From the sequence record PQ464628.1: a DNA stretch of 40,547 bases, one strand, 5' to 3'. The position numbers and the translations under genes are program-made. The DNA comes from Escherichia phage MirsaeidiM_Esher2. Positions 3,943 through 40,477 of this stretch are shown here, piece after piece; position 1 is the stretch's first letter, and the number at the start of each line of letters is the position of its first letter. The notes below the pieces were generated by a model. The model was not told the origin of the DNA. It did not search any database and saw only the letters and a program-made list of their open reading frames with translations.

Positions 3943-3990
3943 CAGGGCCTTTGAGTCTACATCTGAAGGCCCTGACTGATAGCCACTAAC
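3943..3990 (+). promoter_or_regulatory. 9-bp-stem hairpin plus conserved box CCTGACTGATAGCCACTAAC (RNase III R0.3-like site candidate)
   Basis: Stem 3943..3951 / 3966..3974 is perfectly complementary; no T-tract follows; immediately upstream of the first early ORF. Confidence 0.5.
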
Positions 3991-3997
3991 TTAAAGG

Positions 3998-4252
3998 ATG
4001 GACACTATGAAACACTTAAGCACAATCACTAATCGCAATGAAGTATTCGTGAACACTAAAGGTTATGCGTGGATTCAGCTTAAAGAGATGAGAGGAGCGC
4101 GTCACCGTGTGGTAGTGCGCAAGGTATCAAGCAAGCAGTTCAGCAACTACAGCGTCGATACTGTGCGTATAGACAACGAGACATACCTGATAGACGCGCA
4201 GATAACCGTGAGTCCTACAGTGGGCGTCTCAGCTCCTTATTTCGCTAACTGA
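3998..4252 (+). CDS. hypothetical early protein (84 aa; basic)
   Basis: First ORF downstream of the sigma70 promoters; SD AAGGA favours the second ATG at 4007; no similarity to T7 proteins I can recall. Confidence 0.55.
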   Translation: MDTMKHLSTITNRNEVFVNTKGYAWIQLKEMRGARHRVVVRKVSSKQFSNYSVDTVRIDNETYLIDAQITVSPTVGVSAPYFAN

Positions 4253-4265
4253 GAGTGATTAACTA

Positions 4266-4307
4266 CAGGTCGTTAGAATCATAGCGGCCTGACTGATAGT
4301 CACTAAC
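4266..4307 (+). promoter_or_regulatory. hairpin plus second copy of box CCTGACTGATAGTCACTAAC
   Basis: 7-bp stem 4266..4272 / 4285..4291 (one G-U); box 4288..4307 is 19/20 identical to 3971..3990; directly upstream of the ocr-like gene. Confidence 0.45.
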
Positions 4308-4335
4308 ACATAATTAACTTTGAGAGGATATAACT

Positions 4336-4839
4336 ATGGAACGTAATGCTAACGCATACTATGAGCTGCTGGCTGCAACCGTTGAGGCATTTATCGAGCG
4401 TATTCAGTACGACCATCTGACTCAAGATGATGACTACAGCGATGCGCTGCATGAGGTCGTAGACGGTCAGGTTCCACACTATTACCACGAGATTTTTACG
4501 GTGATGGCTGCTGATGGTATAGACCACGAGTTCGAAGACTCTGGGCTGATGCCTGAAACCAAGGACGTAACGCGTATACTACAAGCTCGCATCTATGAGG
4601 CGCTTTATAACGATGTGTCTAATAGCTTGGATGTAGTCTGGTTTGAGGCTGAAGAGGCAGACGAAGAGGATGAATATTGGGTAGTTGACGCTAAAACAGG
4701 CGCAATAATTGTGCAAGCTGTAGCTCTTGAGGTCGCTACTGCATGTGCCAAGGTCAACTATGCAATAGGTCGCCACCTGAAGGTGGAAGACATCAATGAT
4801 AACGTAGTGTTCGACCCTGCGGCTGAGGACTGCGAGTGA
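4336..4839 (+). CDS. 0.3: Ocr-like DNA-mimic anti-restriction protein with C-terminal extension
   Basis: 167 aa; residues ~40-95 ([43 protein letters not shown]) match recalled T7 Ocr; acidic; about 50 aa longer than the 117-aa T7 Ocr. Confidence 0.8.
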
Positions 4840-16112: not shown

Positions 16113-18284
16113 ATGTTTGACATTAAGAGTATCTGGGGTTCTGACATCGAGACCAACGGTCTCCTTGATACAGTCTCCCAGTTTCACTGTGGGGTCCTGA
16201 TTAACGCCGAGTCGAATGAGACCCTTAAGTACGGGGTAGCTCCGATGGTCGGTATCGTCGGTGGCTTCAAAGAGTATGTTCATAAAGTGGAAGAGATTGC
16301 CGCATCACCTGATGGTATGCTGGTATTCCATAACGGTATCAACTATGACGTCCCGGCTATAGACAAGCTGAAGCGTTTGTACTTTGGGAAACGCTTTAAC
16401 TTCCCGAAACATAAGATGATTGATACCTTGGTGCTGGGACGCTTGATGTATCCAAACATTAAGTTCTCAGACATGGGCGCAGTGAAAGCTGGTCGTCTTC
16501 CACCTAAGATGATGGGACGCCAGTCTCTTGAGGCTTGGGGCTATCGTCTCGGTGAGATGAAAGGTGAGTACAAACACGATTACGTTGCCAAGTGCAAGGC
16601 TGAAGGCATCGAATATAAGGCTGGGGACGAATGGTTGTTCCCGTCTCAGGAGATGCTGGACTATAACGTTCAAGACGTTGTGGTCACACTGGCGTTGTTC
16701 AAGAAGTTCCTGACTGACAAGTATTACTTCCAGTCTGAACAGTTCGCTTTCGAACAGATTTATGCGTTGCGTCTGGAACACGATGCTGCGTGGACCTGTG
16801 CGAAGATGGAGCGTAACGGCTATCCGATGAACACCGAGATGGTCGAAGGCTTATATCGTGAACTCACCGTCAAACGTGCGGAGCTGCTGGACAAGCTGCG
16901 TTCGACTTTCGGCAGCTGGTACGCACCAAAGGGAGGAAAGGAGTTCTTCAAGCACCCACGGACAGGCAAGGACCTTCCGAAGTATCCGAGAGTCGTGTAT
17001 CCTAAGGTCGGTGTCATCTTTAAGAAGCCGAAGAACAAAGCTCAACGCTTAGGTCTTGAACCTTGTGAACTCGATACGCGAGACACGATGGAGGGAGCAC
17101 CATTCACGCCAATCACTTACGTTGAGTTTAATCCGGGAAGCGGAGACCACTTAGCGAAAGTATTGATGGAGCGTGGCTGGGAGCCTGTGGACTTCACTGA
17201 CACAGGGAAACCTGTAGTCGATGACGAGACGTTGGAACACGTTAAGTTACCAGACGCAGAGGCTCAGGCTTGCGTAGAGCTGGTCCGTGAGTATCTGGTA
17301 GTCCAGAAGCGAATCGGTCAGGCGGCTGAAGGTAAGAACGCATGGTTGAAACTTGTAGGTCCAGACGGACGTATGCACGGTTCAATCAACCCTTGTGGAG
17401 CAGTAACCGGACGTGCGACCCATAGTTCACCAAACATGGCTCAGGTCCCGGCTAACGGTGCTCCGTATGGTGAGACTTGCCGTGGTGCTTTCGGTGCAGC
17501 GTGGAACAAGAAGGATGGCAAGCCAGACCCTTGGATTCAAGTAGGTGTGGATGCTTCAGGTCTTGAGCTTCGTTGTCTGGGGAACCGAGCGGCTCCGTTT
17601 GATGGTGGCGACTATGCGAAGACTGTGGTCGAAGGTGACATCCACTGGGCCAACGCAGTCAACGCTGGGTTAGCACCTAACGTCCCACGCGACAAGTCCA
17701 GCCACGACCACGATGCTTTCCGTAACAACGCCAAGACGTTCATCTATGCGTTTCTGTATGGTGCAGGTGCCGCTAAGATTGGACTGATTGTAGGCGGTGG
17801 TAAGAAGGAAGGCGCGGCCCTGATGAAGAAATTTATTGAGGGTACACCAGCTATCAAGGACCTGCGAGAGGCTGTCCAGAACACGCTCATCTCCGAGTCC
17901 AAGTGGGTAGATGGTGAGAACATCGTGAAGTGGAAACGCCGCTGGCTTAAAGGTCTGGACGGTCGACGCATTCACATCCGGTCTCCACACTCAGCACTTA
18001 ACGCCTTGCTTCAAGGTGATGGTGCGGTGGTCTGCAAGCACTGGATAGTCGAGACCGAGCGTATGCTCGAAGAGGCCGGGTATGTCCACGGCTGGGAAGG
18101 AGACTTCGCGTACATGGCTTGGGTCCACGATGAGCTACAGATTGCGTGTCGCACTCAGGAGATTGCCGAAGAAGTCGTCAAGATTGCTCAACTTGCTATG
18201 CGTAAGGTGGGCGAGTTCTATAACTTTAAATGTGTGTTAGACACGGAGGGTAAAATTGGACCAACGTGGAAAGAATGCCATTGA
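16113..18284 (+). CDS. 5: DNA polymerase (T7 gp5 homolog, family A)
   Basis: 723 aa; FHNGINYDVPA, AVTGRATHSSPNMAQ, NAKTFIYAFLYGAG, AYMAWVHDELQ, C-terminal GKIGPTWKECH match recalled T7 gp5. Confidence 0.97.
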   Translation: MFDIKSIWGSDIETNGLLDTVSQFHCGVLINAESNETLKYGVAPMVGIVGGFKEYVHKVEEIAASPDGMLVFHNGINYDVPAIDKLKRLYFGKRFNFPKHKMIDTLVLGRLMYPNIKFSDMGAVKAGRLPPKMMGRQSLEAWGYRLGEMKGEYKHDYVAKCKAEGIEYKAGDEWLFPSQEMLDYNVQDVVVTLALFKKFLTDKYYFQSEQFAFEQIYALRLEHDAAWTCAKMERNGYPMNTEMVEGLYRELTVKRAELLDKLRSTFGSWYAPKGGKEFFKHPRTGKDLPKYPRVVYPKVGVIFKKPKNKAQRLGLEPCELDTRDTMEGAPFTPITYVEFNPGSGDHLAKVLMERGWEPVDFTDTGKPVVDDETLEHVKLPDAEAQACVELVREYLVVQKRIGQAAEGKNAWLKLVGPDGRMHGSINPCGAVTGRATHSSPNMAQVPANGAPYGETCRGAFGAAWNKKDGKPDPWIQVGVDASGLELRCLGNRAAPFDGGDYAKTVVEGDIHWANAVNAGLAPNVPRDKSSHDHDAFRNNAKTFIYAFLYGAGAAKIGLIVGGGKKEGAALMKKFIEGTPAIKDLREAVQNTLISESKWVDGENIVKWKRRWLKGLDGRRIHIRSPHSALNALLQGDGAVVCKHWIVETERMLEEAGYVHGWEGDFAYMAWVHDELQIACRTQEIAEEVVKIAQLAMRKVGEFYNFKCVLDTEGKIGPTWKECH

Positions 18285-18654
18285 CGGAAAGTCCCTGCAT
18301 TTTACAGGCGCTGCGAGCGAGCTGTATGCAAGTTACCGACTGACATCTATTGGACACCAAGTCTTCCTACCAGCGTTCACCCAGTCCAAAGCGGACTTAG
18401 TGGTGGATATTAACGGGACCCTTAAGAGGGTTCAGGTGAAGACTGGGACCAAGCTGAAGAACTGCAATAGCATTCAGGTCCGACTCGGTGGGTGCGGAAA
18501 GCCCACCTACAGCCCGGGAGAGATTGACCTACTGGCTGTGGTCTATCAGGATAACTTCTGGCTGATTCCGTTCGTGGAAGAAGTGAGGCTTAAAACCTCC
18601 ATGTGTATAAACCTAACGTCCGACAAGAAGTACGGACACTTTAAACAGGAGTAA
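18256..18654 (+). CDS. hypothetical protein (132 aa), possible PD-(D/E)xK-like nuclease fold
   Basis: TTG start with GGAGGG 5 nt upstream, overlapping the end of gene 5; contains D-x(n)-QVK arrangement (ADLVVDINGTLKRVQVK); function is inference only. Confidence 0.5.
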   Translation: MDQRGKNAIDGKSLHFTGAASELYASYRLTSIGHQVFLPAFTQSKADLVVDINGTLKRVQVKTGTKLKNCNSIQVRLGGCGKPTYSPGEIDLLAVVYQDNFWLIPFVEEVRLKTSMCINLTSDKKYGHFKQE

Positions 18655-18659
18655 CCACA

Positions 18660-18950
18660 ATGGCTATGACCAAACGTATGCGAGTATCGTTCTCGATGGG
18701 TGCTGTACTGTCTACTGGAGACGTTGAGCACATCAAGAAGTCTCTCTGTGATTTGAGCCGTAAGGTTCTCAATGGTGAGAAGACCACTGGCTTCGAGCGT
18801 AAGATGGTCGAGGTAGGCGTTACAGAGGGTCTGGAAGCTGTGGTAGAGCTTGTCTTTGAGAAAGGCATTGTTGATGGCCTGAAAGAAGACCTGAGTCGTT
18901 ACGTTGACCAGCCCAGCTTCGGAGGCTTCCGAGTGGAGTTCAAACGATGA
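18660..18950 (+). CDS. 5.5: gp5.5-like protein
   Basis: 96 aa; N-terminus MAMTKR..VSF resembles recalled T7 gp5.5; SD AGGAG. Confidence 0.65.
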   Translation: MAMTKRMRVSFSMGAVLSTGDVEHIKKSLCDLSRKVLNGEKTTGFERKMVEVGVTEGLEAVVELVFEKGIVDGLKEDLSRYVDQPSFGGFRVEFKR

Positions 18951-19156
18951 GTGAATACTTACGGGTCCTAGCGGCCCTTAAGTCCTGCCCGAAGACCTTT
19001 CAGTCCAACTATGTGCGCAACAATGCAGCACTGGTGGCTGAGGCTGCGAGTCGTGGACATCTAAGCTGCCTGTCTATGGACGGGCGTAACAACGGTGCGT
19101 GGGAGATTACCGCCGAAGGCGTTAAGTTCCTGAACCAACACGGAGGCTGTCTATGA
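18947..19156 (+). CDS. 5.7: gp5.7-like protein
   Basis: 69 aa; LKSCPKTFQSNYVRNNAALVAEAASRGH..GAWEIT matches recalled T7 gp5.7; start overlaps previous stop. Confidence 0.75.
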   Translation: MSEYLRVLAALKSCPKTFQSNYVRNNAALVAEAASRGHLSCLSMDGRNNGAWEITAEGVKFLNQHGGCL

Positions 19157-19602
19157 AGATACCTGAAAGTCTGAAAGAGCTGGTCCTTGAAATGGGTGAG
19201 TGCGAGATGACGCACCGTAAGTATGCTGAGTTCTACGCATCTTGGTCTTACACCCTGACCGAGAAGGACGTTGAGTCCTACACCGAGTCTCCTTCTGAGG
19301 CTTATGAGTGGAGTCCGTTCATCGGACTGACCATCGTAGCTAGCGGTATGTGGGATGACAGCTACGGCTCAGAGGTAAACGACTGGGACGTGTACCGCCA
19401 AGTTGAGAAGGAGACCGAAATGTCGTCCAACTTCTGGAGCCTGATGTCCCACCTCAACTCAGATGACAACGACATGGCCCATGAGTTCGCCAACAAATGG
19501 CTGAAGCCTGAGGTGACTCTGGAACGTATTGAGGAGCCTAAAGTTCCCTTGATGCCATATGCAGTCGCTATGGCTACAGGAGGTCTGGACGATGGGTGCT
19601 GA
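19153..19602 (+). CDS. hypothetical highly acidic protein (149 aa) at the gp5.9 position
   Basis: SD GGAGG 6 nt upstream; strongly acidic composition; lies between gene 5.7 and the exonuclease gene. Confidence 0.6.
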   Translation: MKIPESLKELVLEMGECEMTHRKYAEFYASWSYTLTEKDVESYTESPSEAYEWSPFIGLTIVASGMWDDSYGSEVNDWDVYRQVEKETEMSSNFWSLMSHLNSDDNDMAHEFANKWLKPEVTLERIEEPKVPLMPYAVAMATGGLDDGC

Positions 19603-20461
19603 GAAGAAGATAGCTCTTGTTCTTGATGGCGATTACCTAGTATTCTCTTCTATGGCTGCTGCCGAGGAAGAGACAGACTGGGGTGATGACATCTGGACCC
19701 TTATCTGCGACCACGAGAAGGCTCGCCGTATCCTTGAGAACACCATCGCTGAAATCGTTAAGAAGCGCAAGGCGTGGAAAGACGCTAAGATTGTGATGTG
19801 CTTTACTGATGATAACAACTGGCGTAAGGACGTTTTGCCTACCTATAAGGCTAACCGTAAGGGTTCTCGCAAGCCTGTAGGTTACAAGAAGTTCGTAGCC
19901 GAAGTGATGGCTGACCCACGGTTCAACAGCTTCCTGCGTCCAACGCTTGAGGGTGACGATTGTATGGGTATCATCGGGACCAGACCTCAGATTGTCGGAT
20001 GCGACCATGCGGTGCTGGTGTCCTGCGATAAGGACTTCAAGACCATCCCGAACTGTGAGTTCTTCTGGTTAACCACTGGTGAAATCCTGAGTCATACGAC
20101 TTCCGAGGCAGACTACTGGCACATGGAGCAGACCATCAAGGGTGACACTACAGATGGCTATGGCGGTATTCCGGGGATGGGTGAGGACACCACTCGTGCA
20201 TTCCTTGACAAACCGTATTACTTCGTGCAGGAGAGCCGCGAGCTTAAGACTGGCAAGAACAAAGGCCAGATTAAGACTGAGTGGAAGAAGTATCCGAAGC
20301 GTGAAGACATGACGCTGTGGGACTGCATGGTTACACTGGCTGCTAAGGCTGGCATGACCGAGGAGGAACTTCTGGTCCAAGCTCAGGTCGCTCGTATTTG
20401 TCGAGCATCTGACTATGACCCTAAGTCCAAGGAGGTCATCCTATGGACACCATCCATGTAA
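19592..20461 (+). CDS. 6: 5'-3' exonuclease (T7 gp6 homolog)
   Basis: LVLDGDYLVF, VLVSCDKDFKTIPNC, WHMEQTIKGDTTDGYGGIPG, TLWDC as recalled for T7 gp6; start set at ATG 19592 (AGGAGG upstream); ORF track starts at 19559. Confidence 0.93.
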   Translation: MGAEKKIALVLDGDYLVFSSMAAAEEETDWGDDIWTLICDHEKARRILENTIAEIVKKRKAWKDAKIVMCFTDDNNWRKDVLPTYKANRKGSRKPVGYKKFVAEVMADPRFNSFLRPTLEGDDCMGIIGTRPQIVGCDHAVLVSCDKDFKTIPNCEFFWLTTGEILSHTTSEADYWHMEQTIKGDTTDGYGGIPGMGEDTTRAFLDKPYYFVQESRELKTGKNKGQIKTEWKKYPKREDMTLWDCMVTLAAKAGMTEEELLVQAQVARICRASDYDPKSKEVILWTPSM

Positions 20462-40022: not shown

Positions 40023-40217
40023 ATGATTGAGTTAGACTTCAAGAATGAGGTCCTTAAAGCCTCTCCTATCGTCGGGACCGCTGCGGCTGATGGTGCCAGT
40101 CGGTTCTTCTTCGGACTTACACTGAACGAATGGTTCTACGTTGCAGCTATAGCGTACACCGTTGTCCAGATTGGTGTGCTAGTCTACAAAACGATTAAAG
40201 GAGGTGGTAAAACATGA
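40023..40217 (+). CDS. 17.5: class II holin (T7 gp17.5 homolog)
   Basis: 64 aa; APIVGTAAADGASRFFFGLTLNEWFYVAAIAYTVVQIG matches recalled T7 holin; SD GGAGG. Confidence 0.85.
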   Translation: MIELDFKNEVLKASPIVGTAAADGASRFFFGLTLNEWFYVAAIAYTVVQIGVLVYKTIKGGGKT

Positions 40218-40477
40218 CGCAGATGGACTTAGAGAAGTTCCTCTTAATTCTGGATACTGAACGTGCTCGACTCATGCTGCAAGACCTGCGGGATGACACT
40301 AAGCGTTCACCTCAGCTTTACAACGCCATCGAGAAGCTACTGGCTCGTCACAACTTTGTGCTAAGCAAGGTGTCAGTTGACGAGAAGACGCTCGCTGATA
40401 TGGAGGCCCTGAACGCAGAGTATGATAAGGTGCTTTCAGCGACTGAGGATAATGACACAGGGTATGGTGTTCAATAA
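40214..40477 (+). CDS. 18: terminase small subunit / DNA maturation protein (T7 gp18 homolog)
   Basis: 87 aa; RSPQLYNAIEKLLARH matches recalled T7 gp18; ATG overlaps holin stop; SD AGGAGG. Confidence 0.85.
   Translation: MTQMDLEKFLLILDTERARLMLQDLRDDTKRSPQLYNAIEKLLARHNFVLSKVSVDEKTLADMEALNAEYDKVLSATEDNDTGYGVQ

Follow-up and report, generated by a model that had tools for sequence, protein, structure and literature searches.

In phage T7, gp5.9 is encoded between genes 5.7 and 6 and acts as an acidic coiled-coil DNA mimic that blocks the DNA-binding site of RecBCD (PMC9836394); it inhibits MukBEF too (PMC7617805). In Escherichia phage MirsaeidiM_Esher2, the same slot holds an acidic protein of 149 aa, and what such a protein does there is the question that this locus raises. 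An earlier note, made from the letters alone, proposed that it may be a distinct DNA-mimic-type inhibitor of a host nuclease or defence system. In this study, we analysed the gene and its product within the whole stretch of DNA at hand (40,547 nt; hereafter, the window). The window covers the whole genome, in circular permutation, of a K1F-like phage (Kayfunavirus, Autographiviridae), whose nearest relatives are Escherichia phages vB_EcoP_F and Pipis. An Rz-like spanin and the large terminase subunit are encoded within positions 1-2296, the early region (Ocr, RNA polymerase) begins near 3.4 kb, and the gene of the small terminase subunit lies at the end.

The gene and its acidic product

The open reading frame listing of the window contains the 149-aa frame where the earlier note had placed it, between gp5.7 and gene 6 (Table 1). 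The presence of a gp5.7 homologue on the left and of the gp6 exonuclease on the right makes the assignment to the gp5.9 locus correct. The good Shine-Dalgarno sequence that had been claimed is also in place, and the start codon overlaps the stop codon of gp5.7 (ATGA). Matches to the gene were detected by tblastn in 173 phage records, and the protein is 100% identical in vB_EcoP_F and Pipis. In comparisons with four Kayfunavirus relatives, dN/dS was 0.13-0.28 for the gene and 0.08-0.13 for gp5.7. Purifying selection acts on the gene, which is real and not a chance frame. Of note, the start of gene 6 was taken from the annotation of relatives (vB_EcoP_F) and is the most likely one; the first in-frame ATG is found at 19559.

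Table 1. Coordinates, in the window, of the 149-aa gene, its parts and the genes mentioned in the text
Feature	Position	Strand	Comment
Ocr-like anti-restriction protein	4336-4839	+	167 aa
DNA polymerase	16113-18284		local gene order
PD-(D/E)XK endonuclease-like ORF	18256-18654	+	132 aa; local gene order
gp5.5	18660-18950		local gene order
gp5.7 homologue	18947-19156	+	conserved left flank of the slot; phrog_1334, E 1e-38; 75% identity to T7 gp5.7
Shine-Dalgarno sequence of the 149-aa gene	19142-19146	+	GGAGG, 6 nt before the ATG; read from the sequence
Acidic 149-aa protein (phrog_4382 family)	19153-19602	+	stop codon TGA at 19600-19602
Module A, acidic alpha/beta domain (residues 1-87)	19153-19413	+	motifs EHRKYxEFY and GMWxDSYGSE; net charge -12
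Variable cassette	19157-19566	+	borders by blastn against sister phages with other cassettes
Module B, SHLN helix-loop-helix (residues 88-118)	19414-19506	+	F..LMSHLNSDDNDMAHEF; predicted helices 89-100 and 107-116 (AF2)
Short beta strand closing the predicted fold (residues 119-128)	19507-19536	+	strand 120-125; AF2 pLDDT ~75-88
Disordered C-terminal tail (residues 129-149)	19537-19599	+	predicted; pLDDT below 50
Shine-Dalgarno sequence of gene 6	19579-19583		GGAGG, within the tail-coding DNA
Gene 6 5'-3' exonuclease	19592-20461	+	conserved right flank of the slot; PF02739 and phrog_107 matches
Small terminase subunit	40214-40477		end of the window

Computation of charge and pI bore out the strong acidity of the product, which comprises 30 Asp and Glu residues and 11 Lys and Arg residues (net charge -19, pI 4.26). 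In acidity per residue, the protein ranks second among the window ORFs of at least 50 aa, and several other ORFs of the window are acidic as well. The first rank belongs to the Ocr-like protein (net charge -30, pI 4.08; phrog_2568, E 4e-54), which is encoded upstream of the RNA polymerase gene, so that this phage already encodes one canonical DNA mimic. With T7 gp5.9, the 149-aa protein shares the 5.7-6 slot, a small size, a strong acidity with a pI near 4 and expression as a middle (class II) gene. However, gp5.9 is only 52 aa long, and its sequence is unlike that of the 149-aa protein, as had been supposed. Direct homology between the two is ruled out by a BLASTP E value above 4 and by the Pfam profile PF25708 (Phage_T7_Gp5_9), whose gathering score (24.5 bits) is not reached by the 149-aa protein; hmmscan up to an E value of 1 returned only a chance match to SLT_L. 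Against the same profile, T7 gp5.9 scored 27.8 bits, and two long-form gp5.9 proteins scored 56 and 53 bits. Moreover, tblastn and HMM searches found no gp5.9 gene elsewhere in the window.

The sole family matched by the 149-aa protein is phrog_4382, an uncharacterised family of phage proteins (E 1.2e-48; residues 1-130 against profile positions 6-129 of 130). Neither the single sequence nor the profile had a significant match in Pfam, NCBIfam, PADLOC or the PDB sequences. The family is small, with 24 clusters among 1.8 billion representative proteins, and its members are found in Kayfunavirus, Przondovirus, Dickeya, Pectobacterium, Providencia and Pantoea T7-like phages as well as in Mooglevirus. 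One further hit of the representative-protein search, P0048 (1148 aa), is a repetitive surface protein and was discarded as a compositional false positive. In Citrobacter phage Mordin (Mooglevirus, myoviruses of ~88 kb), a 130-aa homologue (L003, positions 3968-4360) is encoded between the genes nrdD and nrdG of the anaerobic ribonucleotide reductase. In the Kolesnikvirus phages Panisse and phiEa21-4, which are related to it, a long-form gp5.9 is present instead, at another locus.

Throughout the family, the net charge stays between -10 and -20 even at ~25% identity, and some 20 alignment columns, scattered over the whole fold, are acidic in most members. To judge from the alignment, this acidity fits a surface that would mimic nucleic acids or bind a basic cleft. 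AlphaFold2 (AF2), run on an alignment of 25 sequences, yielded a confident globular model for residues 1-128 (pLDDT ~90), with predicted helices (H) and strands (E) in the order H5-14, E16-23, E26-34, H37-43, H47-56, E60-68, E72-86, H89-100, H107-116 and E120-125. This predicted alpha/beta fold has no relative among PDB folds and no likeness to known DNA mimics, and it differs from the parallel coiled-coil dimer of T7 gp5.9 (PMC9836394). Ocr (T7 gp0.3), lambda Gam and other DNA mimics are likewise small, strongly negative phage proteins that counter host nucleases, but neither their sequence nor their fold resembles that of the 149-aa protein.

Two modules shared with gp5.9-type proteins and their neighbours

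The best-conserved stretch of the family is module B, with the motif F..LMSHLNSEDN.MA.EF. In a profile comparison with the long-form gp5.9 proteins, residues 86-118 matched with an hhalign probability of 96.7% (E 4e-10), and the match was confined to that span. Long-form gp5.9 proteins (57-78 aa; PF25708; phrog_6163, 4790 and 6234) are strongly acidic and comprise an SHLN module, present as an N-terminal extension, and a GVDNW domain; examples are those of Kosakonia phage Kc166A (QVV96871), Kayfunavirus CLBP1, Erwinia phage Y2 (gp58) and Pectobacterium phage PP101 (orf49). What they have in common with the 149-aa protein is a 33-residue helix-loop-helix, F..L[ML]SHLN[SA]E[DE]N.MA.EF, and, in sister phages, the identical slot. 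The order of the parts differs. In the long-form proteins, a long helix comes after the SHLN module, and the GVDNWxGY motif and an acidic tail complete the chain, whereas the 149-aa protein has the module C-terminal to its alpha/beta domain and lacks the GVDNW domain. The AF2 model of a long-form gp5.9 shows the same helix-loop-helix continued by a 26-residue helix, whereas the 149-aa model has no long coiled-coil helix: the second helix of the hairpin spans 10 residues and is followed by the strand and a proline-rich disordered tail. The hairpin itself lies within the confidently predicted part of the 149-aa fold (pLDDT ~90).

A profile of the SHLN module alone retrieved 85 proteins of 40-74 aa, the majority of them with PF25708. 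The DNA that encodes the module is only 45% identical between the window and CLBP1; hence, the module is conserved at the protein level and has not been exchanged recently. Since T7 gp5.9 lacks the SHLN module, the shared part is not the one that has been shown experimentally to bind RecBCD. In some genomes, long-form gp5.9 is found without any alpha/beta partner, as in Kc166A and CLBP1, where the alpha/beta domain is absent genome-wide, and the module must therefore have a role of its own. Some members of the phrog_4382 family, in turn, carry no SHLN module, and no SHLN gene lies within 3 kb of the gene of one of them.

Several side observations concern the wider gp5.9 family. Proteins of three contigs of 56-98 kb (L017, L019 and L020; match at ~3983-4291) join the SHLN module to yet another C-terminal domain, the third one seen with it, which reads ...YLVAGGTDGY...DPESYGGMDSGPE...; these proteins form the core of phrog_6163 and are encoded near DNA polymerase I genes. 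The GVDNWxGY domain is widespread, with at least 600 pattern matches in IMG/VR on contigs of up to 257 kb (L122-L201). Two proteins (L109 and L114) join an N-terminal half like that of T7 gp5.9 to a GVDNW C-terminal half, and such hybrids confirm the GVDNW proteins as true relatives of gp5.9. Judged on these sequences, T7 gp5.9 seems to be a diverged representative of a far larger family.

Module A also has relatives outside its own family. It matches the gp59-like proteins of Chaseviridae (~130 aa; phrog_24684) with an hhalign probability of 96.8% (E 2.3e-10, 86 columns) and, in HMM searches, with E values of 3e-8 to 3e-5. Moreover, its core carries the gp59-like motifs [EK]H[RS]K/KHS and G.W...[YW]G, and the predicted 149-aa structure retrieved Erwinia phage Y2 Gp59 from BFVD with a Foldseek probability of 0.99. 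Other gp59-like proteins are PP101 orf50 and its counterparts in Pantoea phage SSEM1 and Aeromonas phage phiA050. Unlike the 149-aa protein, they have no SHLN module in cis, and their C-terminal beta segment (VEQVTETxTVTKWKP) differs; the two modules are nonetheless coupled genetically, as the SHLN module is encoded by the overlapping upstream gene. The gp59-like genes of Chaseviridae lie directly downstream of long-form gp5.9 genes, with an overlap of 8 nt in Y2 and PP101. On one contig (L022), a single fused gene carries both modules in reverse order, SHLN first and alpha/beta second. Among seven gp59-like loci in IMG/VR, a SHLN+GVDNW gene is found directly upstream in five, and a SHLN-alpha/beta fusion in one. 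Conversely, when 77 loci with a GVDNW-type gp5.9 were compared, an alpha/beta neighbour was present in 5 of the 11 with the SHLN module and in none of the 66 without it (Fisher p 2.3e-5).

These homologies indicate that the window protein joins in one chain two modules that are adjacent on separate genes elsewhere. Module sharing and gene adjacency tie the 149-aa protein to the gp5.9 family independently of its position. In the searchable literature and curated libraries, we found no description of the phrog_4382 family, the SHLN module or a gp58/gp59-type gene pair; likewise, the searchable literature yielded no experimental characterisation of long-form gp5.9 or gp59-like proteins. The family of the 149-aa protein is apparently new to the literature, and it is related by a module to the RecBCD inhibitors of the gp5.9 family.

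Exchange of cassettes between gp5.7 and gp6

The borders of the variable cassette were defined by blastn against CLBP1, L035, L038, L039, L046, L048, L049 and L057, sister phages that carry other cassettes. The homology always stops at 19156 on the left, and it resumes between 19567 and 19600 on the right (at 19588 in CLBP1). Exactly in this slot, the Kayfunavirus phages Kc166A and CLBP1 carry a SHLN+PF25708 protein of 67-78 aa, and so does the Przondovirus-like Klebsiella phage RCIP0140, the SHLN+PF25708 protein again lying between gp5.7 and gp6. In Klebsiella phage SH-Kp 152410, the slot holds a homologue of the window protein with 127 aa. Next after the Klebsiella homologue comes an ORF of 58 aa, which we considered as a gp5.9 and rejected, as it is basic and belongs to phrog_12303.

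We surveyed 80 related loci that contain gp5.7. The slot is empty in 21, and in the others it is occupied by at least five cassette families unrelated to one another, some of them neutral or basic. The alpha/beta+SHLN cassette was found at nine loci and gp5.9-like forms, with or without SHLN and including T7-like/GVDNW hybrids, at a few. Many loci have neutral beta-rich proteins of 66-92 aa (phrog_2251), 16 have basic proteins of 58-60 aa (phrog_12303) and seven have acidic proteins of 94-115 aa (phrog_18166). Given that the slot takes unrelated cassettes or none, position does not fix function, let alone RecBCD inhibition. Hence, of the argument for an inhibitor that the earlier note had drawn from the gp5.9 slot, the location between conserved flanks stands, whereas as functional evidence it is weak on its own in such a hypervariable place.

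The phrog_18166 proteins (L048, L050, L070, L094, L099, L110 and L113) have a net charge of -10 to -14 and the motif DGDWTD.HKSE...TGDYWQGYETE. Compared by hhalign as a possible third family related to the alpha/beta domain, they were discarded (probability of ~1% or less), and they are a candidate inhibitor in their own right. Variation is also seen upstream of the slot. gp5.5, which binds H-NS, shows an identity of only 30-86% among phages that share 95-99% identity in gp5.7 and gp6 (window against L006-L009), so that gene 5.5 is also exchanged or evolves fast. The PD-(D/E)XK endonuclease-like ORF (PF11645, E 4e-9) starts with TTG, inside the 3' end of the DNA polymerase gene. vB_EcoP_F and Pipis lack this stretch, whereas YZ1 and SFPH2 have it, and the patchy distribution suggests that a mobile element like a homing endonuclease inserted at the position of gene 5.3.

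The right junction accounts for the end of the 149-aa protein. The tail-coding DNA contains both the Shine-Dalgarno sequence and the ATG of gene 6, and the tail is missing in the 127-aa homologues of Klebsiella phages. In addition, its last seven residues, GGLDDGC, are identical in an unrelated cassette protein (L035; ...MAKGGLDDGC), with DNA homology from 19570. A tail that carries the start signals of gene 6 and is shared with unrelated cassettes is largely a product of the junction. We also considered residues 113-149 as a degenerate gp5.9 coiled coil and GVDNW domain (AMATGGLDDG against ALEAGGVDNW). This reading was rejected, since the tail scored no better than 500 shuffles against a profile of the long-form C-terminal domain, and it is further undercut by the coincidence of the Gly-Gly and Asp residues with the Shine-Dalgarno sequence and ATG of gene 6. 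Of note, other unrelated slot proteins (L035, L040, L046, L048, L057, L063 and L113) end in similar tails, hydrophobic and then acidic, such as LLAATVPAMS..K.VSDE and LGATLSMAKGGLDDGC; these may reflect shared junction DNA or a functional C-terminal peptide.

Possible roles of the 149-aa protein

We favour a role of the 149-aa protein as an acidic protein that by itself inhibits RecBCD or another DNA-binding host target, and we give this reading a probability of about 0.4. A pathway shared with gp5.9 is the best-supported interpretation because of the common module, the adjacency and fusion of the genes in unrelated phage families and the allelic replacement within the same slot. The 149-aa gene is one of several accessory cassettes swapped by recombination into the gp5.7-gp6 slot, and its product would be a middle-gene protein of host takeover, made of an acidic alpha/beta domain with the SHLN hairpin packed onto it. 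In Chaseviridae, the same two modules are distributed over adjacent, overlapping genes, the SHLN module extending a protein of the gp5.9 family and the alpha/beta domain forming the product of the next gene. We infer from this arrangement that the alpha/beta domain may share a pathway with gp5.9-type inhibitors and may be coupled to them by the SHLN hairpin, in trans in Chaseviridae and in cis here. As MirsaeidiM_Esher2 has no gp5.9 coiled coil, the fused protein would act alone. Its conserved negative surface might fill the site at which RecBCD, or another host complex that processes DNA ends or binds DNA, contacts DNA, and the outcome would be protection of the linear phage genome. In its more specific form, in which the alpha/beta domain is an acidic inhibitor of RecBCD or of another DNA-binding host complex with a new fold and the SHLN hairpin is an adaptor to gp5.9-type coiled-coil mimics, this proposal is tentative.

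Somewhat doubtful, in our opinion, is an action on a different host protein, either of a defence system or a housekeeping factor, through a specific interface that mimics nothing; the SHLN hairpin would then reflect shared ancestry or reuse, and the acidity would be incidental. The use of the slot as a general accessory hotspot for unrelated cassettes is consistent with this alternative, and so are the predicted fold, for which no mimic relative is known, and the acidity of several other ORFs of the window. Moreover, the products of the adjacent T7 genes 5.5 and 5.7 target H-NS and sigma-S, not nucleases. However, the linkage between the alpha/beta domain and gp5.9 genes is statistically strong and extends across unrelated phage families, and the negative charge is kept while the sequence diverges.

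We consider it unlikely that the alpha/beta domain is instead an SHLN-binding partner or regulator of gp5.9-type proteins, which would, for example, protect the phage against host guard systems that detect RecBCD inhibitors or set the timing of inhibition, the fused form being a self-capped relic or decoy. There are guard systems that gp5.9 triggers, such as retron Ec48 (cited in PMC9836394), the two modules co-occur in cis or on overlapping neighbouring genes, and AF2 packs the hairpin against the alpha/beta domain in the predicted structure. Nevertheless, the window encodes no gp5.9-type protein to pair with, and in such genomes the gene is under purifying selection and occurs widely. A gene that is selected and widespread where no gp5.9 partner is present argues that the 149-aa protein must work alone.

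It appears improbable that the protein is accessory to the replication or recombination of phage DNA and binds, for example, the phage exonuclease, DNA polymerase or SSB. In favour of this reading, the gene is always found among genes of DNA metabolism: between those for DNA polymerase and exonuclease in T7-like phages, beside dUTPase, ligase and exonuclease genes in Chaseviridae, and between nrdD and nrdG in Mooglevirus. However, the gene is dispensable at the genus level, as in many sister phages the slot is empty or taken by a different cassette, and this is the pattern of accessory genes of host interaction rather than of a core replication factor. Finally, a non-functional or chance open frame, for which only the lack of an assigned function speaks, is hardly credible and is refuted by the good Shine-Dalgarno sequence, the translational coupling to gp5.7, the dN/dS values, the occurrence in 173 phage records over several genera and the confident AF2 fold.

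RecBCD is a hub of bacterial immunity, and to our knowledge the architectures of its inhibitors are few, namely Gam, gp5.9, Abc2 and T4 gp2. K1F-like and Klebsiella T7-like phages are of therapeutic use, and we know of no description of how they handle RecBCD. If the SHLN hairpin is indeed an adaptor, Chaseviridae would encode a two-protein inhibitor (gp58 and gp59), and the K1F-like and Klebsiella T7-like phages a single-chain version of it without the coiled coil. These proteins would then belong to a modular, recombining toolkit of RecBCD-directed counter-defence proteins. The junction of genes 5.7 and 6, with its six or more alternative accessory cassettes, is a recombination hotspot and a compact place for mining counter-defence genes. 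Should the 149-aa protein prove to be directed against RecBCD, or to be another DNA-mimic inhibitor, it would represent a new structural solution and would show that gp5.9-type inhibitors are modular.
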